This document shows positions 12,970 through 29,020 of a DNA stretch of 32,000 nucleotides, in pieces (position 1 is the stretch's first letter; each line of letters starts with the position of its first letter). The stretch is from an archaeon (GTDB taxonomy: Archaea > Iainarchaeota > Iainarchaeia > Iainarchaeales > CSSED10-239). Made by a program: the position numbers and the translations under genes. The stretch spans positions 60,001 through 92,000 of the forward strand of contig JBBABY010000005.1 in the NCBI GenBank assembly GCA_041657425.1. The letters are read 5' to 3'. The notes under the pieces were generated by a model. It saw only the letters and a program-made list of their open reading frames with translations, was not told where the DNA came from and did no database searches.

Positions 12970-13147
12970 CAATATATATATATATTTCGTTCATTCATTC
13001 TATTAAATTACAATTAAATAATTAAAAAATTGGAGGAAACCAAAATGGCAAAAGAAAATAATAAAAAGCTAATCATTTGGGCATTAGTAGCTTTAGTGAT
13101 TGGTGTAATAATAGGGTTAGTAATAACAAACCTGACAACAACAGGAA
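12970..13147 (+). repeat. Direct repeat copy 1: promoter + RBS + signal-anchor coding cassette of the surface-protein family
   Basis: Aligned by eye to 14062-14235. A 73-nt run (cgttcattcattc...atggcaaaagaaaata) and a 41-nt run (taatcatttgggc...ggtgtaata) are identical. An (AT)n tract at the 5' edge differs in length between copies. Confidence 0.9.
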
Positions 13148-13995
13148 AAGGGGGTTATATCTCTGAAATTCACCAGATTCGTCCAAAAACACAGGTTGGG
13201 ATAACTATGCCTATTCCAATTTATTTGGAGTTAGTTCAAGAAATAGATAGTGTTAATGGTGGAACAGGTACTATTAATAAGTATGCGTTTATTGAAAACG
13301 AAGAATTTCACTCTAATTTACCCGGGAAAGTTAGAAAAAATACCACCGTCAACTTTTCTGATGGCACAGTATTATCTGACGATTATACTTCAGAATTAGA
13401 GTATTCTGCATATTATTCAGAATATATTGCAGGAACCTTTTTTGGTCCATTTACTTCAATAGAGGCTACTATATATGATATGAAAGTAACTTCTATAATT
13501 GATGCACACTTTAAAATAGGTTCTAAAATAATACCTAAATCATTAACAACTGTATTTAATCCGAATGAAGATTTATTTGCAGTAGTTAATAGTCTTGATT
13601 TAGATTGTAGTGGTCAATATAATCTAACACATTCAGAAGTAGGAGATATTGATGAAATATCTGGGAATTTATATATTTCTCAATATAATCAAGGCACCGG
13701 TTGGACTAATGTTTTACAGGATTACCCTTTAGATTTAACCTCGTCAGCAGATAATACCTATACAGGATATATTCCAGCATCTGCAATAACTCAGTTAAAC
13801 AATGGAAGTCAGTACATTAGAGTGTCGATTAATAGTCACATTATTACTGCAACAGGATTACAAACAAGTGCAGAAATGCACAAATATCTAAATTGTCAAA
13901 CCAATAAATCTGAATCATTAACTCCTGAAGAAATAAAGGACGTGAGAAAGATAACAGGCTATAAATCAATAGATGAAAGAGCAAAAATAAAATAA
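13045..13995 (+). CDS. Membrane-anchored or secreted surface protein, paralog 2 of the MAKENNKKLIIWALVAL family
   Basis: I take the ATG at 13045 as the start, because the listed TTG at 13030 lies inside the GGAGGA RBS. It has one N-terminal TM. The ectodomain carries two conserved Cys (LDLDCSGQYNL, YLNCQTNK). Confidence 0.8.
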   Translation: MAKENNKKLIIWALVALVIGVIIGLVITNLTTTGKGGYISEIHQIRPKTQVGITMPIPIYLELVQEIDSVNGGTGTINKYAFIENEEFHSNLPGKVRKNTTVNFSDGTVLSDDYTSELEYSAYYSEYIAGTFFGPFTSIEATIYDMKVTSIIDAHFKIGSKIIPKSLTTVFNPNEDLFAVVNSLDLDCSGQYNLTHSEVGDIDEISGNLYISQYNQGTGWTNVLQDYPLDLTSSADNTYTGYIPASAITQLNNGSQYIRVSINSHIITATGLQTSAEMHKYLNCQTNKSESLTPEEIKDVRKITGYKSIDERAKIK

Positions 13996-14061: not shown

Positions 14062-14235
14062 CAATATATATATATCGTTCATTCATTCTATTAAATTACA
14101 ATTAAATAATTAAAAAATTGGAGGAAACCAAAATGGCAAAAGAAAATAAAAAATCATTAATCATTTGGGCATTAGTAGCTTTAGTGATTGGTGTAATATT
14201 AGGATTAGTAATAACAAATTTATCAACAACAGGAC
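14062..14235 (+). repeat. Direct repeat copy 2: promoter + RBS + signal-anchor coding cassette of the surface-protein family
   Basis: See 12970-13147. A third, partial copy covers only the coding part at 625-730. Confidence 0.9.
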
Positions 14236-15080
14236 AAGCAAAATCTATAACAGAGGTTGCGCCAAGAACATTAATTGGCACGGGATATAATTTTGTATTA
14301 TATCAAAATATGAGTTTTGAAAATCCAAATGGAGAATATCTTTTATGGACGCAAGAAAACTTACAATCTAATGTTCCTGCAAGAATTAAAAAAGAATCTT
14401 CAATGTCATATAATTTAGACGATTTCAGACCATACTTTCTTAATTCTTCTATAACTAATACAGAAAGAGCAGAAAATAGCAATTTAGGTTATGCTGCATA
14501 TCCAGAAACTGTTTTATGGTTTCCAAACACAACAAACACCCCCACCGTGTCCTATTCTTATTTTACAGAATGGACTTTTGGTAATGGAGTGACTAAAACA
14601 GAAGGTACTGGTTATTCAGTAAATGAAAATTATAATTCATTTATAGAAGCAAGTTCTTTAAATGTAAATTGTTCTAATTATGAACTTGTTCATTCTACCC
14701 CTACGGGAATTAATTATCTTGGATATCAATTCTATATATATGATACAACTTACAATTATGATCAAGTTTATTACGGGTCTTGGATAGAAGCAAGAATAAA
14801 TCCTAACGGTATTCAACAAGGAAATTTGCCACAAGAGGCAATAGATATATTGCAAAATAATAATGGATATGAGGGAGTATTGATTGCACATATATCTACT
14901 ACCGAGAATATGTATACTGTGGTTTACAGTGCTAATACTTATTTAAATTGTCAAAATGGCGCAATTACTAAATTAAATTCTGATGGTTTACAAAAATTAC
15001 AACAAAAAACAGGAACTCCAATAGACGTAATAAAAAAATTACATGAAGAAGGTAAGATGCCTTTTACAGTACAAAAATAA
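14133..15080 (+). CDS. Membrane-anchored or secreted surface protein, paralog 3 of the MAKENNKKLIIWALVAL family
   Basis: ATG at 14133 follows GGAGGA. The N-terminal 40 aa are nearly identical to paralog 2. The remainder is only weakly similar (LNVNCSNYELV, YLNCQNGA). Confidence 0.8.
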   Translation: MAKENKKSLIIWALVALVIGVILGLVITNLSTTGQAKSITEVAPRTLIGTGYNFVLYQNMSFENPNGEYLLWTQENLQSNVPARIKKESSMSYNLDDFRPYFLNSSITNTERAENSNLGYAAYPETVLWFPNTTNTPTVSYSYFTEWTFGNGVTKTEGTGYSVNENYNSFIEASSLNVNCSNYELVHSTPTGINYLGYQFYIYDTTYNYDQVYYGSWIEARINPNGIQQGNLPQEAIDILQNNNGYEGVLIAHISTTENMYTVVYSANTYLNCQNGAITKLNSDGLQKLQQKTGTPIDVIKKLHEEGKMPFTVQK

Positions 15081-16865: not shown

Positions 16866-16993
16866 TTTGCGGCCAATTTGTAAGGTTATTGTGTGGAAAT
16901 AGTAAACTATTGCGCGCTAACCTCAAAAAAAATACACGGTATTTTTTAGGATCCTAAAAAATCAGTGATTTTTTATGAGAGCGCAACCGGTTT
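16866..16993 (+). other. GC-clamped structured leader element, copy A (upstream of tRNA-Ser UGA)
   Basis: attgcgcgc (16909-16917) comes first. Hairpin 1 is aaaaaatac/gtatttttt (16927-16947). aggatcc follows. Hairpin 2 is taaaaaatca/tgatttttta (16955-16975). gcgcaaccgg (16981-16990) closes the element. It is collinear with copy B. Confidence 0.5.
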
Positions 16994-17038
16994 AGTTAAC
17001 TAGAGAAGAAACGCCTATGAACTGGGCGAACAGTTAAA

Positions 17039-17121
17039 GCAGAGATGGCGGAGTGGCCAAACGCGCCAGCCTTGAGAGCTGGAGTCGAAAGACTACGCGA
17101 GTTCGAATCTCGTTCTCTGCG
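17039..17121 (+). tRNA. tRNA-Ser (anticodon UGA), class II
   Basis: Acceptor stem is GCAGAGA/TCTCTGC and the D-stem is 3 bp. The anticodon stem CCAGC/GCTGG carries loop CTTGAGA. The long variable arm is AGTCGAAAGACTAC. The T-arm is GCGAG-TTCGAAT-CTCGT and the discriminator is G. Confidence 0.9.
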
Positions 17122-17145
17122 CTTAAAATTGTTAAAAGATCATTT

Positions 17146-17484
17146 ATGTCAGAAGAAAAACCAATCATTACTTTTGATGATTTCATAAAATTAGACATAA
17201 GAATAGGAACAGTTATAGAAGCAGAAAAAGTACCAAACAGTTCAAAGCTTCTAAAGCTAATAATTGACTTTGGAGATTTTAAAAGACAAATACTTGCAGG
17301 AATTGGTACCAAGTATTCTCCTGAAGACTTACAAGGTAAACAAATACCAGTAATAGTTAATCTTGCACCAAGAAAGATGGCGGGGTTAGTTAGTCAAGGA
17401 ATGATTATGGCTGTAGGGGATAATGATGTGGAAGCTCTTTTGTTTCCAACAGAAGCCGTAAAATCAGGAAGTTCAGTTCACTAA
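17146..17484 (+). CDS. tRNA-binding domain protein (Trbp111/CsaA/EMAP-like OB fold)
   Basis: DIRIGTVIEAEKVPNSSKLLKLIIDFG...ILAGIGTKYSPEDLQGKQIPVIVNLAPRKMAGLVSQGMIMAV matches the tRNA_bind signature. The start is moved to the ATG at 17146 because the listed 5' extension overlaps the tRNA. Confidence 0.85.
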   Translation: MSEEKPIITFDDFIKLDIRIGTVIEAEKVPNSSKLLKLIIDFGDFKRQILAGIGTKYSPEDLQGKQIPVIVNLAPRKMAGLVSQGMIMAVGDNDVEALLFPTEAVKSGSSVH

Positions 17485-17499
17485 AAGGAAGGGTAAATT

Positions 17500-17769
17500 A
17501 TGGATAAAATTAAAATAAATTATTTTATTGATGTTCTATTAATAATATCATTTATTGTAGTAGCAATAACAAGCCTTGTAATATTTTTCTTTCTTCCAAG
17601 TGGAGTAAGACAAGCAGGTTATCAAACATTTTTAGGATTAACAAAACATTCATGGGGTAATATTCATACAATCTCAGGATTTGCAATGATAATTCTGTCA
17701 TTGATACATTTGATATTACATTTCAAATGGTTAACAACAATGTCAAAAACAATATTTAAGAAAAAATAA
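17500..17769 (+). CDS. Small membrane protein, DUF4405-like
   Basis: Two or three TM helices with conserved His spacing (WGNIHTISG...LIHLILHFKW). Confidence 0.5.
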   Translation: MDKIKINYFIDVLLIISFIVVAITSLVIFFFLPSGVRQAGYQTFLGLTKHSWGNIHTISGFAMIILSLIHLILHFKWLTTMSKTIFKKK

Positions 17770-17774
17770 TTTAG

Positions 17775-17902
17775 TTGTGTGTCGATAAGCAACCAGTTAG
17801 TGCCATACAAATTCTGGCTGGGCGCCAACTCAGGAAAACAAAAGTTTTCAGGATGCCAAGAAATCGCAGCGACGATTTGTTGTGCACGACCGCAACCGGT
17901 TG
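17775..17902 (+). other. GC-clamped structured leader element, copy B (abuts tRNA-Ser GGA)
   Basis: ctggctgggcgcc (17814-17826) comes first. Hairpin 1 is gaaaac/gttttc (17834-17849). aggatgcc follows. Hairpin 2 is aaatcg/cgattt (17861-17878). gaccgcaaccggttg (17888-17902) closes the element. The order matches copy A, with different but still complementary stem sequences. Confidence 0.5.
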
Positions 17903-17903
17903 T

Positions 17904-17986
17904 GCAGAGGTGGTGGAGTGGTCAAACGCACTAGCCTGGAAAGCTAGAGTCGAAAGACTACGCGAGTTCGAATCTCGTCCTCTGCG
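17904..17986 (+). tRNA. tRNA-Ser (anticodon GGA), class II
   Basis: Acceptor stem is GCAGAGG/CCTCTGC. The anticodon stem CTAGC/GCTAG carries loop CTGGAAA. The variable arm is AGTCGAAAGACTAC. The T-arm is GCGAG-TTCGAAT-CTCGT and the discriminator is G. Confidence 0.9.
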
Positions 17987-18202
17987 ATTAAATTTAGATC
18001 AACAGTTTGCTGTAAGTGAGCTTGTAGACTGGATTAAAGGCAAGAAGCTCGCCCACGACTACGAAACAGGACTAATTTCTAAAATCCCGCTAATCTTCGA
18101 AGATACTCAAAAACATACGTACGTTTCTGAAAAGTGTTCTCAACAAAATCTTTTTAAATACAATATACAATAACTATTTATAGAAATAAAGTGTGATAAA
18201 AA

Positions 18203-18880
18203 ATGGTTGTAAGAAAATTAACAAAAGGCAGTTTCCCAAATGCAAAAAATATTAAGAGCATTAAAATAGGAGGTCGTAAATTCGTTGCAGAAAAGAAACA
18301 GACAGCAGACATAAAACTAGAAATAAATAAAGAAAAAATTAAAATAATCAGTTCTTTAAAAAAACGTCTAGAGAGAGGAGAATTAAAATTAACCAGTGCC
18401 GATTTAATGAAATTAAAGGCACAGGGAATTAGCCTGATTGAATTAAGAAAAGTAATAGCTCCAGAATATTTGTTAAAAACTTTGAGTTTAAAAGCATTTG
18501 TAAAAATATATGGTCAAGAAGATGTAGTTAAGGCTTTTAATGGTATTTCCCGATTAATATTTGATGCTGGTTTGAGGGAGACAGTTTATGCTATTGATCC
18601 AAAATATTTTAAAAATGAATTTTCATTAAAAGAAATTGTGAATAAGCTTTTTAAATACGGCTACAAGGATGTGTCACAGTATAGGGCCCCAGATATGCAA
18701 AGCTATATGTCACAAAATGGACGTTATGAAGTAGCAAAGGCTTGGGGGCTTAAGAATATAATAGAAACATTTGGGATTAAAGAGACTATGGTGGCTATGG
18801 GTAGATCAGAATCTGAACTTAGATCTTTATTAAATGCATCAGATTACGATTTAGGGAAAGCTTTTCCTCGCGAATATTAG
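18203..18880 (+). CDS. Hypothetical protein (225 aa)
   Basis: Long ORF with a lysine-rich N-terminus and no motif I recognise. Its TAG stop is the first three nt of att-like repeat R1. Confidence 0.6.
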   Translation: MVVRKLTKGSFPNAKNIKSIKIGGRKFVAEKKQTADIKLEINKEKIKIISSLKKRLERGELKLTSADLMKLKAQGISLIELRKVIAPEYLLKTLSLKAFVKIYGQEDVVKAFNGISRLIFDAGLRETVYAIDPKYFKNEFSLKEIVNKLFKYGYKDVSQYRAPDMQSYMSQNGRYEVAKAWGLKNIIETFGIKETMVAMGRSESELRSLLNASDYDLGKAFPREY

Positions 18881-18920
18881 AGTCTCACGACTACGCGAGT
18901 TCGAATCTCGTCCTCTGCGA
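18878..18920 (+). repeat. att-like repeat R1: copy of the 3' 43 nt of tRNA-Ser(GGA)
   Basis: tagagtcTCACgactacgcgagttcgaatctcgtcctctgcga is 40/43 identical to 17945-17987. The only differences are in the variable-arm loop (gaaa vs tcac). Confidence 0.9.
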
Positions 18921-18944
18921 TTTTTTATTTTGTGTTTAAATTGC

Positions 18945-20342
18945 TTATTTCAAAAACACACACTCTTCATTTTTTATTCGCGGATATTTTTTGTTTGACC
19001 AAGCAATTGTTCCACCAGAAATGTGAATAGCATTATATCCTTCAATAATTAAATTTTTTGCAGCTTTAAAGGACTTTTCTCCAGTTTCACAAATAAGATA
19101 GATGTTGTTTTCTTTTTTTATTTTTTGTTTATAGTTTTTTATAAAAGCATCCATCGGTATGTTTGTAAATCCAGGAATGTGATAATCCCCAAATTTATTT
19201 TCAATTCTTAGGTCTATAAAAATATTGTTTGGATTTCTTTTAATGTCTGTATTTAATTTTTCAGAATAGGTTTCTTTAAGTATTTTATAAAGTTTAGTTA
19301 CAGTTATAGAATCTACTTTATCTTTTGTATGTTTAGTTGTAATTTCATAAGGAAGTAATTCTTTGTTAATTACTTTTGGAAAATCAGACGTTGGAAGATA
19401 TGAAAAATATTCATCTAGATATGGTAATGGCGTGTCGTAACAAATAAATACGCAAGTTTTATTCTTAAGTTTATTTCTCTTAATATATTCTAATAACCCT
19501 GCAAGAGCAAACCCAGAACTTGGGCCAACTAATAATCCGCTTCTAATTAATTTTAAGCTTTGGGTATAAGATTCAACACTTCCAATCTCGATAATATCAT
19601 CTGCATTATTCTTCCAATCAAAAGCAATCATTTTCAAAAGATTTTTTGTTCTAACGCCTGGTACTAAGTTATTTGGTTTTCTTATTACCCCTATTGCCTT
19701 GAGGTTATCGTTTTTCTTCTTTAAGTAATTACTAGTTCCAAGAAAGGTTCCAGTTGTTCCAAGTCCTGAACAAAAGATATCAATCTTTCCATTTGTTTGA
19801 ATCCAAATTTGTTTTCCTGTTATCAAACTATGCGAATTAGGATTATTTAAATTATCATATTGTCCAAAGTTAATATATTTCTCAGATTTAGCCATTTGTT
19901 TAGCCTTATAGATCCCGCTATTTTCATCATCTGGATCTGGACAAATTGGTTCATTATTAATAATCGGAGTAATCCCAAATAACCTTAGCATATTTAATTT
20001 ATTTTTTGTAACTTCATTTGAAACAAATGCTTTCATTGAATTTAATCCATAATGCCTGCCAATTATTCCTAAAGAATAAGCAGTATTCCCTGAAGAATTT
20101 TCTATGATTGTAGGTTTATTTTGTAATTTCTTTTGAATATGTGCTGAATTAATCATCTCATATGCAGGAATAGATTTAATATTAAGTAAAGGCAAAGTGT
20201 TTTGTAATTTTGCAAATATTCTAATCCCATTTTTTCTAAAAGGATTACATTTATCATCAAGCTCTACAAGAGGAGTCATATGATTATGAGGATTGATATA
20301 ATCCTTTATTGCATTCTTTCCAGAATAAACATTATTTTTCAT
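18945..20342 (-). CDS. PLP-dependent cysteine synthase-family enzyme fused to a C-terminal rhodanese domain
   Basis: The CysK/CysM-like motifs are LNIKSIPAYEM (PLP lysine), SSGNTAYSLG and GLGTTGTFLG. The C-terminal ~100 aa carry the rhodanese loop LICETGEKS and a GGTIAWS tail. Confidence 0.75.
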   Translation of the reverse strand: MKNNVYSGKNAIKDYINPHNHMTPLVELDDKCNPFRKNGIRIFAKLQNTLPLLNIKSIPAYEMINSAHIQKKLQNKPTIIENSSGNTAYSLGIIGRHYGLNSMKAFVSNEVTKNKLNMLRLFGITPIINNEPICPDPDDENSGIYKAKQMAKSEKYINFGQYDNLNNPNSHSLITGKQIWIQTNGKIDIFCSGLGTTGTFLGTSNYLKKKNDNLKAIGVIRKPNNLVPGVRTKNLLKMIAFDWKNNADDIIEIGSVESYTQSLKLIRSGLLVGPSSGFALAGLLEYIKRNKLKNKTCVFICYDTPLPYLDEYFSYLPTSDFPKVINKELLPYEITTKHTKDKVDSITVTKLYKILKETYSEKLNTDIKRNPNNIFIDLRIENKFGDYHIPGFTNIPMDAFIKNYKQKIKKENNIYLICETGEKSFKAAKNLIIEGYNAIHISGGTIAWSNKKYPRIKNEECVFLK

Positions 20343-20348
20343 AATCTT

Positions 20349-21293
20349 TCATTTAAATTTAAAATTAAGATCGATCTGAGAACTTAGATCTCCAAATCTG
20401 TCTTTAATGCTTGGTTGAGAAACATATTTCGTGTGTAATAATTGAAGTCTAGACAATCTTTTGTTTGGGTCAGGAGTAATTTTATTAATCTCTAAATATA
20501 GTTTTTCTAATACTTCTAAATTGTTAGTTTCAAATTTATCTAAAGTAACTGCCCCACCGTACTTATCAAGTAATTGTAGATATTTAGAATCTCTAATAAA
20601 TCCAATTATTTTTTCTGCACCAACATTGTCTATTAAAAATTTTAAATCATCTTCATTTTTTATTTTATTTCCAAGAATAAAGAAATTATCAACATTGTTT
20701 TTGCTTAAGTTTTCAAACATTTTAAACAATTCTACACTTTTTTTTGTAGGCTCTACAATTAGTACAATTGCATCAAACTGCAAATGCATTGAAGATGCAA
20801 ATAAATCTGTTCCTGCAACCATGTCAGAAACTATATATTCATTTTTATCGTATGTGTGACTAAGAATAATTTCTAAAATTTCAAGATTGTTATGATAACA
20901 ACTAGTTCCTACACCGTGGACTTCATAAGTTCCAACAACTGCTAAGTATGCATTATCTGAAATCTCTTTACAGAAATTAGAAATAAAATAATCTTCTTTA
21001 GTAATTGTTATTAATTTAGAATTAACAGAAGGAGGAGTAGTCTTTCTAAATTCGTCATTATTTTTTATAAGATCGTTTGTTCCTTTTAAGTAGTTTTTAA
21101 TTTTTAATTTTAGATTATTATTTGAAATATATTCTTCAGAAGACACTGTACAATTAAATAACTCAGGAAGATGCACATTTATGTCTGCATCAATCACAAG
21201 TACAGGTTTTCCTTTAGAAATAATTAATTTACTAAATAATGCAGAAAGGGTAGTTTTACCAACGCCGCCTTTCCCAACAAATGCTATTCTCAT
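20349..21293 (-). CDS. CooC/MinD/ParA-superfamily P-loop ATPase (deviant Walker A)
   Basis: MRIAFVGKGGVGKTTLSA at the proposed start (ATG at 21293, since the listed upstream extension has no support). A later VIDADIN and a single-Cys GTSCYH motif are present instead of the CooC CxC. Confidence 0.7.
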   Translation of the reverse strand: MRIAFVGKGGVGKTTLSALFSKLIISKGKPVLVIDADINVHLPELFNCTVSSEEYISNNNLKLKIKNYLKGTNDLIKNNDEFRKTTPPSVNSKLITITKEDYFISNFCKEISDNAYLAVVGTYEVHGVGTSCYHNNLEILEIILSHTYDKNEYIVSDMVAGTDLFASSMHLQFDAIVLIVEPTKKSVELFKMFENLSKNNVDNFFILGNKIKNEDDLKFLIDNVGAEKIIGFIRDSKYLQLLDKYGGAVTLDKFETNNLEVLEKLYLEINKITPDPNKRLSRLQLLHTKYVSQPSIKDRFGDLSSQIDLNFKFK

Positions 21294-21356
21294 ACATATA
21301 TATATTTTTCTTCCTTTATATATATTAATGATAACCATTATCAATAAGGATAAAAT

Positions 21357-21716
21357 ATGTCTAAATCAAGAAGAACTATACAAAAAGAACTAATTTTAAA
21401 AGAAATAGAAAACATGAAAGTTTTCTTCTCTGCAGCAGAACTTTATAGTAGAATTAATTCTAAACACAAAATTGGTATTGCAACAATATATAGAATTCTT
21501 AATCAGCTAACTAAAGATTATATTATTTATTCATTTGTTTGCGATAAACGAAACATTTATTCAAAACACGGAAGAAACCACTGCCATTTCGTTTGTGAAG
21601 ATACTGGCGAAATTATTCATTTTAATATAGATTCTTTAGATTTCTTAAAAGATAAACTTCCTGGAAAAATTATTTCTTTTCAAATAGAAATAAAAGGTAT
21701 TAAAAATAAGAAATAA
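21357..21716 (+). CDS. Fur-family metal-responsive transcriptional regulator
   Basis: The N-terminal wHTH is IGIATIYRILNQL. The HCHFVCEDTGEIIHF metal-site motif is typical of Fur/Zur/PerR. It is divergently transcribed from the ATPase gene. Confidence 0.7.
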   Translation: MSKSRRTIQKELILKEIENMKVFFSAAELYSRINSKHKIGIATIYRILNQLTKDYIIYSFVCDKRNIYSKHGRNHCHFVCEDTGEIIHFNIDSLDFLKDKLPGKIISFQIEIKGIKNKK

Positions 21717-21816
21717 TGATATATTTAGTTTTATAAATTAAATATAAATTTTTTTATAGAAAACCACTTTTTATAAATTATTTCTTTCTATTGTTGTTTA
21801 AGGGGGGAGACAAAAT

Positions 21817-22125
21817 ATGACAAATGTATTTAAAGAATTTAAAGAGTTTTTACAAGAGTATAAAGTAATTGGCTTAGCAATTGCTTTTATTATTGGTGCG
21901 GCAATTACAACACTAGTAAAGTCTTTAGTTGATAATATCATCATGCCAATAATCACACCATTCATTCCTGGTGGGCAATGGCAAACTGCAACATTAAAGC
22001 TTGGTCCAATAGTTCTAAACTGGGGCGCATTTGCTGGGGCATTACTTAATTTCATAATTATTGCTTTTGTAGTATTTATGATTGCAAAATATATGTTTAA
22101 AGAAGAAACAGTTACAAAAAAGTAA
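21817..22125 (+). CDS. mscL: Large-conductance mechanosensitive channel
   Basis: FKEFLQEYKVIGLAIAFIIGAAITTLVKSLVDNIIMPII plus a second TM (FLNFIIIAFVVFMIAK) is the classic MscL sequence. A G-rich RBS lies upstream. Confidence 0.9.
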   Translation: MTNVFKEFKEFLQEYKVIGLAIAFIIGAAITTLVKSLVDNIIMPIITPFIPGGQWQTATLKLGPIVLNWGAFAGALLNFIIIAFVVFMIAKYMFKEETVTKK

Positions 22126-22203
22126 GTAACTTTCTTTTTTATTTTTTTAGTAAGCGGCTAGTGAAAGAATGTGACTTGCAAAAAAGTATCGGTACTAGAA
22201 TGC

Positions 22204-22246
22204 GAGAGTCTCACGACTACTCGATTTCGAATCTAGTCTTATGCAA
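22204..22246 (+). repeat. att-like repeat R2: degenerate copy of the tRNA-Ser 3' segment
   Basis: gagagtctcacgactactcgatttcgaatctagtcttatgcaa is about 36/43 identical to R1 and shares the R-specific tctcacgactac signature. Confidence 0.7.
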
Positions 22247-22371
22247 TTCAATTCTAAGTAAGCATTTTGCGGCAAGTTGATTTGTATCGCGTGCATTGAC
22301 TAAATTGTTTTAGATATATTTTTAAATTAGTTCTTATTAGTATATTTAGATTTTTATAAAGGAGGAATAAT

Positions 22372-22836
22372 ATGTTAAAAGAATTATCTATGAGCGAATA
22401 TATTACAAAGTACACATCTATTTTACATTTAGGTGCTGGAATTTTATATATACTATACGGAATTGGATTATTAGTCCTTAAAAATTTCGCATCAAATCTT
22501 ACTTCAATGTCAGGATTATTTGGCAGTGCATTTTTAAAAAATATGACTATTGGTCTTGCAATAATATTATTTATTGCAGGAATTTACACTTTATTAACAG
22601 CATATGGCCTTTGGGGGTATAAAAATTTTGGAAGAATAATGTTGTTAATAGAAATGTATGCTTTGGCTGCATTAATTGCAATAATGTTAATTATTTCAAT
22701 ATTTTCAATAATTACATTTTGGCAAGTTGGATTAATCTATTTCCTTGCAATGATGTATTTGGGATTGATTATCTTTTTAAGCATATATCTATTCCAAGCA
22801 CATCCAGAAATGGTTGCCCTTTTCAATAAAATGTAA
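22372..22836 (+). CDS. Polytopic membrane protein (hypothetical)
   Basis: AGGAGG RBS and four or five hydrophobic helices. No family recognised. Confidence 0.65.
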   Translation: MLKELSMSEYITKYTSILHLGAGILYILYGIGLLVLKNFASNLTSMSGLFGSAFLKNMTIGLAIILFIAGIYTLLTAYGLWGYKNFGRIMLLIEMYALAALIAIMLIISIFSIITFWQVGLIYFLAMMYLGLIIFLSIYLFQAHPEMVALFNKM

Positions 22837-22906
22837 AACACATTTTTGCCCAATTCTTTGGGCACATTTATTTTATTAGATAGTAATAGATAAATTAGGG
22901 AATATC

Positions 22907-23557
22907 ATGAATAATGAGCCAGTAACTAATACAAATAAAGAATATCCTAAAAAAAAAGGGATATCTGTCAAATTTTTAATATCTCTTGGTATAATTTTAA
23001 TAATTATAATTTTGGCAGTTATTTTGGTTTCCAAAGCAATATATAATAGAGATATTAGTACAAATATAAATAATTTTGATGAATGTATTGAGGCAGGAAA
23101 TCCCGTAGTTGCGGGGACTTATCCTATACAATGTAAAACACTAGACGGAAAACTATTTATTTCTACTTCAGATAATATTGAGAATAAACCTAAGCATGTT
23201 GATGATTTAATATTTGTAGAAAGACAAGCAACTAATTTTGAGGAATGTTTAAACTGGGGTTTCGTTTCCCAAGGTTATCCTGAATATTGTACAGATGGGA
23301 ATTCTACATTTATTAATCCTAAACATACAAGTGCTCCAACACTAGCAGAACAACAGATTTGTAATACTGATAGCGAATGTACAGGACTGCCAAATCCTTG
23401 TCATAGAACAAGGGTATGTATTAATAAAAAGTGGGTGTCTTTTTACAAAATTAAGCCAGCAGCGTGTACTTTAGAAATAGATCTTTTAGCAGTGTCTCCT
23501 GGAGATTGTGTTTGTCTAAATACAGTCTGTACAAATAAGAAGTTAATTCAAAGTTAG
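22907..23557 (+). CDS. Cysteine-rich membrane-anchored or secreted protein (hypothetical)
   Basis: It has an N-terminal TM (ISVKFLISLGIILIIIILAVILV) and an ectodomain with about 14 Cys in repeated C-x-x-x-C-like spacing. Its TAG stop is the first three nt of repeat R3. Confidence 0.65.
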   Translation: MNNEPVTNTNKEYPKKKGISVKFLISLGIILIIIILAVILVSKAIYNRDISTNINNFDECIEAGNPVVAGTYPIQCKTLDGKLFISTSDNIENKPKHVDDLIFVERQATNFEECLNWGFVSQGYPEYCTDGNSTFINPKHTSAPTLAEQQICNTDSECTGLPNPCHRTRVCINKKWVSFYKIKPAACTLEIDLLAVSPGDCVCLNTVCTNKKLIQS

Positions 23558-23597
23558 AGTCTCATGACTACGCAAGTTCGAATCTCGCCATCTGCGA
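23555..23597 (+). repeat. att-like repeat R3: copy of the tRNA-Ser 3' segment
   Basis: tagagtctcatgactacgcaagttcgaatctcgccatctgcga is 39/43 identical to R1. Confidence 0.85.
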
Positions 23598-23631
23598 ATT
23601 ATTATTTAATAAACTATTTTGTGAAAAAAAC

Positions 23632-23958
23632 ATGACTAGAAAAAAAGACGCAGGAGAATTGTTACATTATTTTTATAAATCGTCTATAGTTGATCACTCC
23701 ATTTCTGCAGAAGATTTACTAAAAGAAATAAGATGGGGAAGTTGGAGATTAGAAAAAGCAATTAAATATCTAAGAGATGTTGATGCGATTGAAATTACTC
23801 TATTTAAAGAAAAGATTGAAAGATTACAAAAGTTTGTAATAGTGGGCCTAACAAAAACAGGTATCCAAATAATAGAAGATAAATCCAAATTTAAAACCAC
23901 TTTCGGATTTGAAATAAACTTAGAGAGCACAAAGTGGAGTTGGAATACTAAACGATAA
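23632..23958 (+). CDS. Small winged-helix-like DNA-binding protein (hypothetical)
   Basis: 108 aa. LEKAIKYLRDVDAIEI...VIVGLTKTGIQIIED resembles a wHTH recognition helix and wing. Confidence 0.45.
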   Translation: MTRKKDAGELLHYFYKSSIVDHSISAEDLLKEIRWGSWRLEKAIKYLRDVDAIEITLFKEKIERLQKFVIVGLTKTGIQIIEDKSKFKTTFGFEINLESTKWSWNTKR

Positions 23959-23962
23959 ATAT

Positions 23963-23980
23963 TGCGCGCGAGCTGAACGC
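23963..23980 (+). repeat. Left arm of an 18-bp GC-rich inverted repeat (partner at 28851-28868)
   Basis: tgcgcgcgagctgaacgc vs the reverse complement of 28851-28868, tgggcgcgagctgaccgc, gives 16/18 identical. It also shares attgcgcgc with leader copy A. Confidence 0.8.
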
Positions 23981-24072
23981 TGTCGTTTTTGGGATGAAGC
24001 ACTTTTTCTAAAAGGGCTCCACTGGACAGCTACCCCCGAAAACTTTAAACACTATTTCTTTCATAGTTATTT

Positions 24073-24657
24073 ATGAATTACTTATATGTAGATATCGAAA
24101 CTGTTCCTGTGGATAAGGAAAAACATTTATCTCTAGATGAAGAGGAAAGAAAGAAACTCTTAAATCCAATTGATTCAAAAATTATTGCAATCGGTCTAAA
24201 GTCAACTAAAGATAATAAGCTAGTCATTCTTCAATCTGATAATGAAAAGGAAATGTTAACTGAATTTTGGAAGATTTACGACAATTTTAGAGCAAATAGT
24301 TCTTTAACAAACAAGATTGTGGGCTTTAACATTAAGCAGTTTGATATTTCTTTTTTAGTGACTAGAAGCTTTGTTAATGGAGTTACAGTTGTTCCTTTCG
24401 TCTTAAAAGAGATAATCGACATTAGAGACCTATTAACTTGCTTTAAAAGAGGGCCAACAAGAGGCACTTTAAAGGAATTTGGAGAGATTATTGGCGTGGT
24501 CTTAGTAGAAGACATGGACGGCTCAAAAGTGGCTGAAACTTACTGGTCAGGAAATATTGATTTAATCAAGACTTACTTAGCAAAAGACATAGAATTAACT
24601 GAAAAGATTCACAACAAGGTAATGGAACTAGGACTAGACAAAATAAGAGAATGGTGA
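24073..24657 (+). CDS. DEDDy 3'-5' exonuclease related to the PolB exonuclease domain (RNase H-like fold)
   Basis: ExoI is YVDIET (D7, E9). ExoII is GFNIKQFDISFL (D91). ExoIII is YLAKD (Y168, D172). This is the COG3298/DNA_pol_B_exo2-like pattern. Confidence 0.75.
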   Translation: MNYLYVDIETVPVDKEKHLSLDEEERKKLLNPIDSKIIAIGLKSTKDNKLVILQSDNEKEMLTEFWKIYDNFRANSSLTNKIVGFNIKQFDISFLVTRSFVNGVTVVPFVLKEIIDIRDLLTCFKRGPTRGTLKEFGEIIGVVLVEDMDGSKVAETYWSGNIDLIKTYLAKDIELTEKIHNKVMELGLDKIREW

Positions 24658-24728
24658 AATATCTATTTAAATATTTAATGTTCATATATATTACTACAAG
24701 ACTATAATATTTGGAGAAATGATAAAAC

Positions 24729-24959
24729 ATGGAAAGACAACCAGTAGATGACAATAACCATAAAATGATTGGAAATATAGTTTCAATTGGATATGATCCA
24801 GAATTAGAAGTTCTAGAAGTAGAATATCAATTAGGCTATTTATACCAATATCTTAAGGTTCCTAAAGAAACTTACGACAAATTAATGAACGAAAGAAACA
24901 AAATTACATTCGTTCAAGAAAGAATCGCAAAAGTTTATAAAAATCAAAGAATCAAATAA
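24729..24959 (+). CDS. KTSC-domain protein
   Basis: VSIGYDPELEVLEVEYQLGYLYQYLKVPKETYDKLMN fits the KTSC pattern (I..igYd.....L.V.F..g..Y.Y..VP...y..l). Confidence 0.65.
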   Translation: MERQPVDDNNHKMIGNIVSIGYDPELEVLEVEYQLGYLYQYLKVPKETYDKLMNERNKITFVQERIAKVYKNQRIK

Positions 24960-25017
24960 GATTCTTTATTTTTAATTTTTAAATAAGTTTAAATAATCTC
25001 TTTTTCTATAGTTATTT

Positions 25018-25746
25018 ATGATAAGTAAAAATTCTGAACAAAGTTATAGAGAAATTATTTTACTTATACACCCATTATTCAATTTATTTCTAGATAAAAT
25101 TAGTAGAATAAATTTCAATAATAAGGAAGAGCTATTAAAATATTTAGTTGGAAGAGAACCATTATTGATTAATTTAAAAGAAACAGTTAAAGATTATGCA
25201 AAAATTATTCTAAAATATAAAAATAAAAAAGGCGCATTATTTGTTTTAATTAATCCGGCAGCAAATAGTTCTCTTTCTTTTAATGTAGATGGCAAGAAAG
25301 TAAATTGGAAAAATTTGCCAGAATGTCAAGCACTATTTTCTATAGTAAATATCATAAGTGCTTTTGGAAGAAAAGAGTTAGGTGAAAGATTTGTAATAAC
25401 TAATTTTAGTCCGGAAGACGGTTACACAAAATTATTTTCTGAGAAAATCTATAATAAATTAGATAAATATCTAGAAATAAGAGCTTTTGGAGAATACACT
25501 GATGGTTGTGTTTATGATATTTCAAATAGAGTTGTTGAAGAATTACAAAACAGAGAATTTAGAATAATGGACTTAGAGACTTTAAGAGATCATTGTATAT
25601 CACTAAACGAGATAGAAACGAAACTAGATAAGCTATTAGAAGAAAAAAGGAAAGTATCAAAAATTAAAGAAAATCAACAAAAGAAAGAACAAATTCAAAA
25701 AGTAGTTTCTATGTTAAATAATTATAAGAAATCCAAAGCAAAATAA
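25018..25746 (+). CDS. Hypothetical protein (242 aa) immediately upstream of the HerA-like ATPase
   Basis: Long ORF with a K/E-rich coiled-coil tail. There is only a faint Rossmann/isochorismatase-like resemblance (LEIRAFGEYTDGCVYDIS), too weak for a call. Confidence 0.55.
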   Translation: MISKNSEQSYREIILLIHPLFNLFLDKISRINFNNKEELLKYLVGREPLLINLKETVKDYAKIILKYKNKKGALFVLINPAANSSLSFNVDGKKVNWKNLPECQALFSIVNIISAFGRKELGERFVITNFSPEDGYTKLFSEKIYNKLDKYLEIRAFGEYTDGCVYDISNRVVEELQNREFRIMDLETLRDHCISLNEIETKLDKLLEEKRKVSKIKENQQKKEQIQKVVSMLNNYKKSKAK

Positions 25747-25831
25747 ATTATAGTTTTTAGCATACAAATCTTTAAAAACCCTAAGATATTATATTAATTT
25801 AGATATACTTAAATTATTACATTGAATATTT

Positions 25832-28408
25832 ATGGCTATAGAAAAATATAAAGCAGATAAAGAAGAGAAAGATTTCTTTGAAAAAATAGAAGATGAACCA
25901 GCAGAAGAAGAGTTAATTGATACCGTTAAAGAAAAAAAAGAAAAGATAAAAGAAATATCTCCAAAGCTTGAATTTTTAACAGATCCAAAGGATCCAGAAA
26001 TGGTCTATATTGGAAGAAAAAAAAGCGTTCTAAAGGATCATGGTTCTAAGTCTTGTGCATTCTTAGGAAAGGTTTATGAGGATGATTGTAGAGATAAAAA
26101 GGTACATCTTGATGGATTAAACCCTCATGTTGTGTTTATAGATGGTTCAAGAGGATCAGGTAAGAGTTATGGCCTTGGGGTAATTGCTGAAGAGTTATCT
26201 GCAAATAATCCATATATTGGACAGATTGTTGTTGATCCAGTAGGTGTCTTTTGGTCCATGAAATATCCAAATCAAGAAAAGAAAGAACTAGAGGAATTAA
26301 TTGCTTGGGGATTATCTCCAAAAGGTTGTAATAATTTAAAAGTTTTTGTTCCAGAAGGAGTAGTAAGTAAAGTTTCAAAAGAAACATATGATGAAACTTT
26401 TTCAATGTATCCATCTTTACTTTTAGCAGAGGATTGGTGTCTAACTTTTGGAATTGATAGATTTAATCCAACAGGTTTACTTCTTGAAAAAACACTATCT
26501 TTCGTAAAAACGGGTTATAAAGCAGGAGATCCAAGTAAAGATGATGTTCCTGAGCAGGACATTCCTTCTAAAGGAAATCTTTACACATTAGAAGACATAA
26601 TTTTTTGTTTACAAAACGCAATGGAGTTTAAGTCTTCTTCAACAGGTTATAAGCAAGATTCAATAAGAGCATTAGTTTCAAGATTTGAAGCAGCAAAGGC
26701 TTGGGGAATATTTAGTGATCACGGTACACCACTTTCAAAGCTTTCAAAGGAAAGACAATTGACAATTCTTGATACTAGTTTTTTAGATGACAATATCACA
26801 GCACTAGTTATTGGAATATTAGCAAGAAGAATACTTTCTGCAAGAAAGTTAGTAACAAGACAAGATGCAATTAAAAAGTTTGATGATAATTCAGAAAGTC
26901 CTGATGATCTTCTAGAGATATCAATTCCTCCAACTTGGGTGTATATTGATGAAGCTCACACATTAATACCTTCTGGTAACACAATCACTCCAGCAACAAA
27001 CGCAATAATTGAATATGTTAAGCAAGGAAGAAGACCAGGTTGTTCAATGGTTCTTGCCACTCAGCAACCTTCTGCAATCAACTCCAAGGTTCTTTCTCAA
27101 GTTGATATTTTCATAAGCCATAAGCTTGTTTTCAATGACGATATCCACGCAGTTCAGAAAAGAATGCCTGCAATTATTCCTGAGGCTTACAAGGATCCTA
27201 ATTTCATAAAGACACTTCCAGTAGGTGTTGCATTAACTGGAGATAGAGGAGAAGAAACAAAAAGAGCATTTATCTTAAAAATAAAACCAAGACTAAGTCA
27301 ACATGAAGGAAGAGATGCAGAAACAATTAGAGAGGTTCCAACATTAGGAAAAAAAGAAATAATTAATTTTTGTTCAGACATGGTATATAAGAAATTAGTT
27401 GCTTCAAAAACTTTAAAGACAACTGATGCAAAAGATTTGCTTGACGTAATTAATTCAAAGTACAATAGCGAAATAACATTTAATGAAGTATTAATCTCAT
27501 TAAGTAAGATGGGTGTTGTTGAAAAAGAAAACATCTTAGTGTTTGCAAACAAAAGTCAAAAACAAAAAACAGAAATATCAAAAGAAGAAATAGAAAATAT
27601 TAATCAAGCCATTGAGTATTCAAATGCAGTTGACCAAAACCCAGAACTTAGAGAACCTGCTCCAGAAATAGAGCCAGACTACAAGCCAGTTCTTCCTCAA
27701 AGGATTTCAAGAGAAATAGCAATTAATATTGCAAGTAGAACTAATAAGAAGAAGTTCTTTTTTATTAAAGAAGAAGAATCAATTACTCAAATACATATAG
27801 TTTACAGAAAACTATACAAAGTAATTTACAATATCTTTGATGAAGAAGAAAATTATATCACTCATAATTGTTTCATAGATTCAATAACAGGAGAATTCAT
27901 ACATTTTGATGGAGTTGATTTTAAGGAGTCAACTGGTTTTAATCTTGTTGATGATTTAACTGTTGATGATATTATATTACTAGATAAAATCTTTGCTTGG
28001 AGGACTCCAGAAGAGTTGTCTGAAGAATTAGAAGCAACTCCCGAACAAATAAAAGAAGATTTAATTTCTCTAGTTGACAGAGAATTAGCAGATGTTGATT
28101 TAATAAATAAACAAGAAGCTTTCAGAATTAAAAGAAAAATAGATGTGCCATTTTCCCCAAAGCTTTCAATTCTTTCTTCAGTAACTGATCTGCCATTAAA
28201 GAAGCAATTAATCCCAATTGTAGAAGATGAGGAAGAAATATCAAAAGAAGAAATTGATGAGAGATTAAATAAGTTATGGCAAAACATAGAAGTAGTAGAC
28301 ATTGAAGAAGTCTTTTGGCCAATCTGGGAAATTAATTCAAGAGACAAAAGAGCAAATGATAGATTTGTTCTAGTTGATGCAGTACTTGGTCAAATAGTTG
28401 ATGCTTAA
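25832..28408 (+). CDS. HerA/FtsK-superfamily (DUF87-like) P-loop ATPase with a ~400-aa C-terminal extension
   Basis: Walker A is VVFIDGSRGSGKS (aa 105-112). Walker B is WVYIDEAH (D372, E373). KQGRRPGCSMVLATQQPSAINSKVLSQVDIFISHKL is the HerA/FtsK-type sensor and arginine region. The acidic C-terminal half is unrecognised. Confidence 0.75.
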   Translation: MAIEKYKADKEEKDFFEKIEDEPAEEELIDTVKEKKEKIKEISPKLEFLTDPKDPEMVYIGRKKSVLKDHGSKSCAFLGKVYEDDCRDKKVHLDGLNPHVVFIDGSRGSGKSYGLGVIAEELSANNPYIGQIVVDPVGVFWSMKYPNQEKKELEELIAWGLSPKGCNNLKVFVPEGVVSKVSKETYDETFSMYPSLLLAEDWCLTFGIDRFNPTGLLLEKTLSFVKTGYKAGDPSKDDVPEQDIPSKGNLYTLEDIIFCLQNAMEFKSSSTGYKQDSIRALVSRFEAAKAWGIFSDHGTPLSKLSKERQLTILDTSFLDDNITALVIGILARRILSARKLVTRQDAIKKFDDNSESPDDLLEISIPPTWVYIDEAHTLIPSGNTITPATNAIIEYVKQGRRPGCSMVLATQQPSAINSKVLSQVDIFISHKLVFNDDIHAVQKRMPAIIPEAYKDPNFIKTLPVGVALTGDRGEETKRAFILKIKPRLSQHEGRDAETIREVPTLGKKEIINFCSDMVYKKLVASKTLKTTDAKDLLDVINSKYNSEITFNEVLISLSKMGVVEKENILVFANKSQKQKTEISKEEIENINQAIEYSNAVDQNPELREPAPEIEPDYKPVLPQRISREIAINIASRTNKKKFFFIKEEESITQIHIVYRKLYKVIYNIFDEEENYITHNCFIDSITGEFIHFDGVDFKESTGFNLVDDLTVDDIILLDKIFAWRTPEELSEELEATPEQIKEDLISLVDRELADVDLINKQEAFRIKRKIDVPFSPKLSILSSVTDLPLKKQLIPIVEDEEEISKEEIDERLNKLWQNIEVVDIEEVFWPIWEINSRDKRANDRFVLVDAVLGQIVDA

Positions 28409-28423
28409 AAGAAGGAAAAACTT

Positions 28424-28759
28424 ATGTTAGATTTACTTAAAAAAAAAGAAGATACAAAGCTTAGTGTTGATTCATTTATTTTAGACTCATGTAAAGCAAC
28501 ACCTGGTTTTGAGTTTTTCCCTAAGAAATCCACAAAGATTGATTTAGAGAAATTATTAATGACTTTAAGGACAAAGAACTACTATATAGAAAAAGATAAT
28601 TCTCCATTTCTAATAATTATAAAAACAAAAAAAGGAACAGTTACTATTTTTAGTTCATTAAAAATAATAATTAGAGAAACAACACAAGAAAAAGTTGCAA
28701 AAGCAATACTTACTGATCTCTTAAAAGTAATAAACGATTTTTTGTATAAGCAAGGGTGA
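28424..28759 (+). CDS. Small protein with a single TBP-repeat-like domain (hypothetical)
   Basis: KIDLEKLLMTLRTKNYYIE...KGTVTIFSSLKIIIRETTQEKVAKA parallels one TATA-binding-protein repeat (lDLekla..l....YePe.FPGl..r...pk...liF.SGKiv.TGaks.e.a..A). The last 10 nt overlap tRNA-Ser(CGA). Confidence 0.45.
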   Translation: MLDLLKKKEDTKLSVDSFILDSCKATPGFEFFPKKSTKIDLEKLLMTLRTKNYYIEKDNSPFLIIIKTKKGTVTIFSSLKIIIRETTQEKVAKAILTDLLKVINDFLYKQG

Positions 28760-28839
28760 CTGAGTTCGGTTGAAGGTGCTAGTCTCGAAAACTAGATGCG
28801 GTTTATACCCGCACATGGGTTCAAATCCCATTCCTTGCG
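28750..28839 (+). tRNA. tRNA-Ser (anticodon CGA), class II
   Basis: Acceptor stem is GCAAGGG/TCCTTGC with one G-U pair. The anticodon stem CTAGT/ACTAG carries loop CTCGAAA. The long variable arm is GCGG-tttatac-CCGC. The T-arm is ATGGG-TTCAAAT-CCCAT and the discriminator is G. Confidence 0.85.
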
Positions 28840-28843
28840 TAGA

Positions 28844-28912
28844 GCCGGTTGCGGTCAGCTCGCGCCCAGCCTGGTTTGAATATCATGCACTACTCGGTTT
28901 CGCTTGCGCACA
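28844..28912 (-). other. Short-form copy C of the GC-rich leader element, inverted, abutting the 3' end of tRNA-Ser(CGA)
   Basis: The reverse complement reads aagcgaaaccgagtagtgcatgatattcaaaccaggctgggcgcgagctgaccgcaaccggc. This is alignable to 17787-17826 plus 17888-17900 of copy B but lacks the two hairpins. It contains the right IR arm (28851-28868). Confidence 0.6.
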
Positions 28913-29020
28913 GTGGTTAATCTCCTAAACAGATTATAAGGTTTAACCCTAATTAAAAAGAGGTATTTATATAAACTTTATATCATAATCTATTTATAGA
29001 AATCAAAGGAGATTTAAATA

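Follow-up and report, generated by a model that had tools for sequence, protein, structure and literature searches.

Copies of a tRNA-Ser 3′ end in a DPANN-type archaeon are very probably attachment-site scars of small, decayed SSV-type elements

Integrases of the SSV type are known as suicidal, as the attachment site of the element (attP) lies inside the integrase gene, which is split on integration (PMC8371274, PMC7253208). Integration of the SSV1/SSV2 type into tRNA genes of Sulfolobales and the ‘gene capture’ connected with it are described in a 2021 review (PMC8371274). Suicidal integrases have been listed for Sulfolobales, Desulfurococcales, Thermococcales, Archaeoglobales and a few Methanosarcinales (PMC8371274, PMC7253208), and DPANN hosts are mentioned neither in the 2021 review (PMC8371274) nor in a 2020 survey (PMC7253208). 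For the pT26-2/pTN3 type, second integrations beside an existing right attachment site (attR) have been described (PMC7253208; PMC8371274); the survey itself reports no tandem integration in its data sets, which include only 5 mesophilic members (PMC7253208). The pTN3 integrase shows recombination of low specificity (PMC7253208; PMC8371274). Here, a stretch of 32,000 nucleotides (nt) from an archaeon of the lineage Iainarchaeota (assembly GCA_041657425.1, contig JBBABY010000005.1, positions 60,001 to 92,000; hereafter the window) was analyzed, in which the 3′ part of a tRNA-Ser(GGA) gene is followed by three further copies of itself, termed R1, R2 and R3 (Table 1). Very probably, these repeats are attachment (att) scars of small SSV-type (‘suicidal’) integrase elements which targeted the 3′ part of tRNA-Ser(GGA) and have since decayed.

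That three copies of the 3′ part of tRNA-Ser(GGA) lie on the same strand downstream of this gene, as had been proposed from the letters alone (the sequence-only reading), could be confirmed. A repeat finder returned one family with five same-strand copies, which comprises the 3′ parts of two adjacent tRNAs and the segments 18877-18930, 22203-22256 and 23554-23607. In a gap-free alignment of 43 columns, R1 matches the tRNA-Ser(GGA) segment at 40/43 positions, and all three differences fall into the variable loop, which reads GAAA in the tRNA and TCAC in R1. From R1, R2 differs at seven and R3 at four positions of this alignment (36/43 and 39/43, respectively), so that the identities given before hold. 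The 15-mer GAGTCTCAYGACTAC occurs three times in the window, with 0.01 occurrences expected from shuffles. Beyond the 43-nt core, R2 remains homologous to the tRNA for about 10 nt further left, as far as 22194, if a gap of 5 nt is allowed in the anticodon loop; that it extends left to ACTAG was assessed by visual comparison with the attR of the related locus L029 (L numbers denote such loci throughout). The homology of R3 reaches approximately 23550. As had also been noticed, the open reading frames (ORFs) 18203-18880 and 22907-23557 terminate on the TAG that opens R1 and R3, respectively. This TAG lies in the anticodon stem of the tRNA and is read as a stop in a single frame, which explains why two genes end on it.

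All related DNA used here stems from metagenome assemblies, and a metagenome scan contributed 18 further related loci. As contigs from other assemblies reproduce its junctions at 100% identity, the array is not an assembly artefact: L001 spans the tRNA 3′ end, the gene for a protein of 225 amino acids (aa), R1 and CysK, and L034 and L035 run through R2 and R3. In a strain variant (L032; 95% nucleotide identity over 900 nt) the visible 31 nt of R3 equal R1 exactly, and the three visible substitutions in R3 of the window are therefore recent.

A search for an SSV-type integrase, which had been suggested along with the integration hypothesis, was successful in relatives, where intact genes are found at the same tRNA, but no intact recombinase was detected in the 32-kb window. 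In L029, tRNA-Ser(GGA) (788-872) is followed by 4.7 kb and then by a 57-nt partial copy which extends from the anticodon stem to the 3′ end. An ORF begins inside this tRNA and continues for 295 codons. When the two ends are joined (5540-5655 + 872-1682), one ORF of 308 aa runs through att. This ORF matches the Pfam family PF16795 ‘Archaeal phage integrase’ (E 7e-28), the integrase PHROG 5127 (1.8e-37) and the structures 3UXU, 3VCF and 4DKS of the SSV1 integrase catalytic domain (5e-11), and it is about 26% identical to SSV1 ORF D-335 and to the pT26-2 integrase over 81-91% of the length. L030 and L028 carry a related element, and joining the ends in L030 (4826-5003 + 198-1015) yields an uninterrupted integrase ORF of 331 codons. 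The integrases of L029 and L030 read att in different frames, and a 1-nt indel just 3′ of att re-joins them; similarly, att is translated in different frames among related Thermococcales integrases (Badel et al. 2020, PMC7253208). The direct repeats which flank the elements of L029 and L030 measure 55-57 nt. As cargo, the L029 element encodes a secreted S8 subtilase of 1254 aa with FG-GAP repeats, and the L030 element a C25-like protein of 844 aa together with an insertion sequence with a DDE transposase. In the segment 4949-5366 of L030, the partial tRNA copy carries the 3′ end and flank of the tRNA-Ser(TGA) of the window; next comes a gene for a tRNA-binding protein with 100% identity to that of the window, among neighbouring genes that differ.

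Remnants of such integrases could be recognized at two places in the window. Directly 3′ of tRNA-Ser(GGA), the DNA from 17987 to 18134 can be aligned to the start of the integrase coding sequence (5′ region) in L029, L030 and L028, and the homology stops abruptly at approximately 18134. In a tblastn search, residues 18-88 of the L029 integrase cover 17922-18134 with 76% identity (E 3e-31). The right flank of R2 reached a local alignment score of 58 with the integrase 5′ region of L030, compared with 31.4 ± 4.7 for shuffled sequences (0/2000 as high), and residues 29-63 of the L030 integrase cover 22206-22310 (tblastn, E 0.001). No integrase similarity was found in the right flanks of R1 and R3. 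As an integrase stump after a site marks it as attL-type and non-integrase DNA as attR-type, the sites pair as tRNA/R1 and R2/R3, and delimit two units termed B1 and B3. The earlier statement that no integrase is visible thus stands for an intact gene, but not for the two 5′ remnants directly 3′ of the tRNA and of R2. Within the 32 kb only these 5′ stumps were found, and neither a catalytic domain nor any other recombinase. Due to the lacking catalytic domain, the units in the window are remnants and not complete SSV-type elements. A 61-aa integrase stump had 0 matches among 1.84 billion representative proteins, which is uninformative, as the query is short and N-termini that overlap att are rarely gene-called. 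An ORF of 132 codons across the tRNA (17775-18173) was rejected as a real gene, as it is an artefact of leader, tRNA and integrase stump.

By analogy with the intact relatives, a free circular element would carry attP within the 5′ part of its integrase gene. Recombination would join the 5′ part of the tRNA to the element-borne copy of the 3′ part, followed by int(C), and the native 3′ part would be displaced to the far end of the element, where it would form a direct repeat (attR). The integrase gene, split by integration, would later decay, with deletions presumably having removed the rest of each integrase gene, and the cargo would stay behind in the chromosome as ‘captured’ genes. Provided that TCAC is native, strand exchange would have taken place at or left of TAGAGTC. 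The junction of a circular B1 would read ...CCTCGCGAATATTAGAGTC-loop-GACTACGCGAGTTCGAATCTCGTCCTCTGCGATTAAATTTAGATC and the empty site of B1 would show the 5′ half of the tRNA running directly into TCAC...CTCTGCGATTTTTTATTTTGTG; for a circular B3, the corresponding empty site would consist of the MscL 3′ flank joined to one att, followed by AATTATTATTTAATAAAC.

Two paralogous tRNA-Ser genes, TGA and GGA, lie only 865 nt apart and show that this locus does undergo duplication. It could be argued that the copies, too, stem from a local duplication or from unequal crossing-over in this region, without any mobile element. This appears highly improbable, as copying was confined to the 3′ part of the tRNA, integrase coding sequence follows two of the four att-type sites (the tRNA 3′ part and R2), and elements with an integrase in relatives are bounded by att at the same limits. 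tRNA-Ser(TGA) itself is not an integration product, as the order TGA, tRNA-binding protein, DUF4405 protein, GGA is kept in relatives.

Both the distribution of the repeat and that of the cargo fit with site-specific integration into a tRNA gene, as initially proposed. Apart from tRNA-Ser genes and attR sites of integrase elements, no copy of the repeat was present in the window and about 45 related loci, and an nhmmer search of all loci with an att profile revealed no older decayed att remnants beyond L029 and L030. For the 225-, 154- and 216-aa, Fur, CysK-rhodanese and CooC-like genes, tblastn yielded no homolog in 29 related loci with shared flanks; the blocks are hence not invariant among relatives. 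The gene after tRNA-Ser(GGA) differs in almost every lineage. After tRNA-Ser(GGA/AGA), MscL follows in L009, three membrane proteins in L010, a racemase in L021, L023 and L042, an ABC transporter in L024, KTSC in L007, L008 and L011, a HerA-like ATPase in the AGA-type lineages and integrase elements in L028, L029 and L030.

The confinement of the repeat also bears on another explanation, according to which the copies act in mRNA 3′ processing or termination, as RNA modules built of the variable-arm hairpin, the T arm and the acceptor strand. Each copy indeed lies directly 3′ of a gene on the + strand, two of these genes take their stop codon from the copy, and R1 is perfectly conserved in diverged lineages. 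Such modules would nevertheless leave the integrase stumps unaccounted for, and neither the window nor the about 45 related loci exhibit copies at other gene ends. In addition, T-stem pairs of R2 and R3 are disrupted by substitutions that have no compensating change: R2 keeps 2/5 pairs, R3 has one broken pair, the 4/25 unpaired T-stem cells are all in R2 and R3, and not a single pair (0) is changed on both sides across the five copies. Fold energies are ordinary (z between -0.45 and -0.93), R3 differs between the 95%-identical strains, and Rfam searches across 16900-24200 with E up to 1 gave no match beyond the two tRNAs. Taken together, a role of the copies as RNA modules is very improbable. 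A scan for sigma-70 promoters and intrinsic terminators remained at background level, with these models not being meaningful for an archaeon.

Split tRNAs, whose halves are joined in trans, are known from Nanoarchaeum and Caldivirga. Given the DPANN-type host and the intact 3′ portion represented by R1, the copies might be regarded as 3′ halves of split tRNA-Ser genes. This is extremely improbable: the copies begin in or after the anticodon stem and not at the 37/38 junction, they lack a leader complementary to a 5′ half, and no significant similarity to a 5′ half was found upstream of R1-R3. The mutated acceptor strands of R2 and R3 fit no 5′ half found. Moreover, complete tRNA-Ser genes for TGA, GGA and CGA are present, and ARAGORN reports only complete tRNAs.

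With considerable confidence, B1 (17987-18920) can be regarded as a degraded element composed of the tRNA 3′ part, an integrase stump, the 225-aa gene and R1, with the tRNA 3′ part (17945-17986) serving as attL. The 225-aa protein belongs to no Pfam family, exhibits only weak PHROG matches and is found in only three protein clusters among 5.8 billion. Its AlphaFold2 model is all-helical with a mean predicted local distance difference test score (pLDDT) of 65, and the best Foldseek match in the PDB (E 0.46) does not amount to a fold match. The protein has no similarity to the integrase. At the DNA level, the 3′ end of its gene weakly resembles the P arm of L030, a similarity reached by 7/3000 shuffles and lacking protein-level support. 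B1 with the same integrase truncation recurs in two other lineages, L040 and L041. Compared with these, the 225-aa protein is 79%, the integrase stump 79% (119/150) and the promoter region 96-98% identical, and dN/dS of the 225-aa gene is about 0.47 (calculated against the 79%-identical homologs). Between the window and L040, R1 agrees at 41/41 positions, and as far as it is visible in L041 it is identical as well.

The sequence-only reading had taken the TCAC loop as a sign that the repeats are copies of each other or of an element-borne attP, and not duplications of the resident gene. A search for tRNA-Ser genes with this loop was rewarding and led to the opposite conclusion, as the closest relatives carry TCAC in their intact tRNA-Ser(GGA) genes. 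In L024 the gene combines a TCAC loop with a 5′ half identical to that of the window, including the rare T12, and tRNA-Ser(GGA) of L021, L023, L009 and L012 also has the TCAC loop. Together with the 20 bases that follow it, R1 matches the 3′ end and adjoining flank of the tRNA in L042, L021 and L023 (91.7% over 48 nt). Judging from these alignments, R1 is most simply seen as the displaced native 3′ end of tRNA-Ser(GGA), and the GAAA loop of the resident gene is probably derived from the element; because the closest relatives carry TCAC, GAAA is more likely the imported variant. A mirror reading, with GAAA being native and the crossover having occurred right of the variable loop, is possible.

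The initial count of three cargo blocks was not supported. The pairing of att sites and integrase stumps gives two elements, and the block of 3.3 kb that separates R1 from R2 is most probably a chromosomal mosaic, formed by more than one process, and not simply a third unit of cargo. It begins with native tRNA flank and contains a syntenic MscL gene as well as a cassette which is found elsewhere in a relative. MscL is 74-82% identical to MscL of L009, L010, L006 and L012, and in L009, L010 and L006 it abuts the 108-aa gene with a spacer of 37-43 nt. The cassette with CysK-rhodanese and the CooC-like ATPase exhibits 85% nucleotide identity to L042-L045 (L042:537-2904). In L042 it sits between the racemase gene and the gene for methionyl-tRNA synthetase (MetRS), without att at either border, and these two genes are adjacent in L021 and L023. 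Homologs of CysK-rhodanese are 87-88% identical and then at most 50%, with the named ones among the latter being mostly Patescibacteria. A horizontal origin of the cassette is probable, and the latter matches suggest a cross-domain transfer between ultra-small organisms.

These data are also of relevance for a classical three-fold tandem array, in which the live tRNA gene would have received three elements in succession, B3 being the oldest, followed by the 3.3-kb block (with MscL as cargo) and finally by B1. An integrase stump behind R2 would fit with such a series, as a newer attR doubles as the older attL, and so would the seemingly horizontal acquisition of CysK-rhodanese and the hypervariable region downstream of tRNA-Ser(GGA) in relatives. 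Yet, the right flank of R1 is native tRNA flank without an integrase stump, MscL is conserved and syntenic in relatives, where it abuts the 108-aa gene, the cassette lies without border att between the racemase gene and MetRS in L042, and R3, which would be the oldest scar, is less decayed. A three-fold array of this kind is therefore rather unlikely.

B3 (22194-23597), like B1, is in all likelihood a degraded element, consisting of R2, an integrase stump, the 154-aa and 216-aa genes and R3. Compared with L009, L010 and L006, R2, B3 and R3 are inserted into the spacer between MscL and the 108-aa gene, and the limits of the insertion map to R2 and R3. Neither the 154-aa nor the 216-aa protein belongs to a Pfam family. 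The only homolog of the B3 cargo is a distant one in L033 (40% identity), compared with which the 216-aa protein is not truncated. In L033, whose contig is otherwise unrelated, two paralogs (481-2485), the only distant homologs of the 216-aa protein, are located just downstream of tRNA-Ser(GCT); no partial tRNA copy was found near them.

Several observations weigh against decayed SSV-type elements as the source of the repeats. Neither a free circular form nor an empty-site variant was found: scans of viral contigs for the repeat, the B1 junction and integrase relatives (single-sequence and two-sequence profile) gave 0 matches, and exact-protein context look-ups for empty-site or alternative alleles (DUF4405, MscL and 108-aa proteins) returned the same arrangement only. 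The G+C content per block, considered as a marker of foreign origin, was rejected, as values of 26-31% provide no contrast to the 29% of the window. The contig L030, one of the relatives with an integrase element and with an apparent TGA-to-GGA replacement of the tRNA, may be a chimeric assembly via a shared 23-nt T-arm segment or a real recombinant. The site of B3, R2 and R3 is devoid of any tRNA gene or att remnant in relatives, so that simple integration into a tRNA fails there. R2 (7/43 plus the 5-nt gap) is far more diverged than R3, though one event should make both. Finally, R1 is perfectly conserved between the window and L040 beside an integrase stump with 79% identity, which differs from the prediction of pure neutral decay.

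With regard to B3, the reading favoured here is that it would have entered a secondary, non-functional att copy and not the live tRNA gene. In the integrase frame of the L030 type, 3/6 substitutions of R2 inside att are synonymous, with these sites being too few for a test. The sequence hints at the right part of R2 being a divergent attP of the element rather than a decayed tRNA; such an attP would wreck a live tRNA, yet do no damage at an att copy without function. The possibility that a tRNA 5′ half has decayed upstream of R2 was considered and rejected, as the alignment scores are no better than those of shuffles.

The conservation of R1 could be explained by gene conversion from the nearby tRNA, by repeated integration or by selection on the site. 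B1 would be either a scar maintained by conversion or an integrase-less satellite mobilized in trans. As a satellite of 0.93 kb it would depend on the integrases of the 4.7-kb elements for excision and re-integration, and would be made up of att, integrase stump, the strongly conserved promoter, the 225-aa gene and a second att. Arguments for this arise from the occurrence of the truncated module in three lineages, the 41/41 identity of att, the promoter identity of 96-98%, the dN/dS of about 0.47 and the presence of B3 at a non-tRNA site; a satellite nature of B1 nevertheless appears unlikely. If it were true, the locus would be a tRNA-anchored cassette platform, with non-functional att copies acting as secondary landing sites.

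With a G+C content of 29%, the window contains genes for an archaeal histone, a TBP-like protein of half size and a HerA-like ATPase. When species-representative genomes were scanned for the pattern, the same tRNA-Ser sequences were matched only in uncultured archaeal metagenome-assembled genomes. The organism is present in the metagenomes ERZ27247350, SRR6484787 and SRR18595299, and variants of it in SRR26784071, SRR32678450, SRR11845629 and SRR27197515. The gene order common to relatives starts with CTP synthase, tRNA-Ser(TGA), the tRNA-binding protein, the DUF4405 protein and tRNA-Ser(GGA or AGA), followed by the variable stretch and then by KTSC, HerA-like ATPase, TBP-like protein and tRNA-Ser(CGA). 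The window region 23632-30301 is kept in relatives between tRNA-Ser(GGA) and tRNA-Ser(CGA) and includes the genes for a 108-aa winged helix-turn-helix-like protein, a PolB-exonuclease-like protein, KTSC, the HerA-like ATPase (858 aa) and the half-size TBP-like protein; a serpin gene (426 aa) comes after tRNA-Ser(CGA). Among relatives, the genes for the 108-aa protein and for the exonuclease are variably present, the former being located directly after MscL in L009, L010 and L006 and after MetRS in L023.

On its 5′ side, tRNA-Ser(GGA) adjoins a GC-rich leader (17772-17903) with a fold of -43.5 kcal/mol (z -3.2) and no Rfam match. The outer segments of this leader are near-identical in L010, L023 and L030, and its inner hairpins differ in L010 and are absent from L023. 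The leader may be a structured RNA which is co-transcribed with tRNA-Ser(GGA). A palindrome resembling AACCGGTT recurs directly 5′ or 3′ of tRNA-Ser genes of this lineage. Elsewhere in the window, three paralogous genes (278, 321 and 320 aa) share a 5′ region of 175 nt which includes upstream DNA, and homologs of these genes occur at the same place in relatives.

Table 1. Positions of the att copies, genes and further features in the window and, where indicated, in related loci
Feature	Position	Strand	Remarks
tRNA-Ser(GGA)	17904-17986	+	ARAGORN and Rfam (17903/4-17986/7), 58.7 bits
Integrase 5′ remnant, int(C) side	17987-18134	+	SSV-type; cut after about 49 codons
225-aa cargo gene	18203-18880	+	stop codon is the TAG of R1
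R1	18878-18920	+	probable attR of B1; the next ~20 nt (18921-18940) are native tRNA flank
CysK-rhodanese and CooC-like cassette	18954-21330	-	2.4 kb; no att at borders
CysK-like pyridoxal phosphate enzyme fused to rhodanese	18945-20342	-	Pfam
CooC/ParA-like ATPase	20349-21293	-	Pfam
Fur-family regulator	21357-21716	+	Pfam
MscL	21817-22125	+	Pfam; chromosomal, syntenic
R2	22194-22246 (core of the sequence-only reading 22204-22246)	+	probable attL-type copy of B3; most diverged copy
Second integrase 5′ remnant	22246-~22300	+	about 55 nt (~18 codons), with a frameshift; adjoins R2 on its 3′ side
154-aa polytopic membrane protein	22372-22836	+	probable B3 cargo
216-aa Cys-rich protein with N-terminal transmembrane segment	22907-23557	+	probable B3 cargo
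R3	23550-23597 (core of the sequence-only reading 23555-23597)	+	probable attR of B3; the promoter region of the 108-aa gene comes next
108-aa gene	23632-23958	+	first chromosomal gene right of the array
tRNA-Gly(CCC)	9209	+	tRNA gene of the window
tRNA-Ser(TGA)	17039-17122	+	ARAGORN, Rfam; paralogous neighbour
tRNA-Ser(CGA)	28750-28839	+	ARAGORN, Rfam
Shared 175-nt 5′ region	556-730, 12976-13150, 14064-14238		two neighbouring copies 93% identical
Palindrome resembling AACCGGTT	17890-17903		also in L003, L007, L010, L017, L021, L022, L023, L027 and L031
Integrative elements of relatives	L029:873-5598; L030:198-4948		about 4.7 kb each

The mechanism outlined here is textbook knowledge for archaea, and what is new is the host lineage and the very small size of the elements. 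The locus places a suicidal SSV-type system, previously described mainly for hyperthermophiles, in an AT-rich, probably mesophilic DPANN-type lineage. In these very small genomes one tRNA-Ser gene appears as a hot spot of gene gain and loss, and the ORFans of 225, 154 and 216 aa can be annotated as mobile-element cargo.

SSV-type integration and gene capture were reportedly treated by She et al. 2001 (Nature 409:478) and She et al. 2004, both as cited in PMC8371274. The resemblance of the present system to SSV1/SSV2 includes an attP in the integrase ORF, the 3′ part of a tRNA as target, the split into int(N) and int(C), the flanking direct repeats and a decay that leaves cargo and partial tRNA copies behind. 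The integrase of the relatives carries PF16795 and matches the SSV1 integrase structures, yet it is only about 26% identical to its counterparts from SSV and pT26-2. In contrast to SSV, the system belongs to a DPANN-type archaeon with AT-rich DNA (29% GC) from metagenomes that include activated sludge, and not to a hyperthermophile; the elements of the relatives are tiny, with 4.7 kb for an integrase and one giant secreted protease, and in the window only integrase stumps of ~50 and ~18 codons are retained. The suicidal architecture is also shared with the pT26-2/pTN3 integrases of Thermococcales, Archaeoglobales and Methanosarcinales. Bacterial genomic islands, which are found in tandem at tRNA and tmRNA genes, likewise use one 3′ end repeatedly, form arrays of direct repeats and can lose their integrase with the cargo being left. 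The reused tRNA 3′ end, the repeat array and the cargo without integrase at this locus appear similar. However, bacterial islands employ integrases of the lambda or P4 type, whose gene is not split, and the blocks described here are 10 to 100 times smaller. The likeness to integron cassettes, as short gene units in one orientation that each end in a recombination site, is superficial only: no IntI integrase, attI or attC is present here, the sites are derived from a tRNA, and the middle block lacks functional bounding sites.

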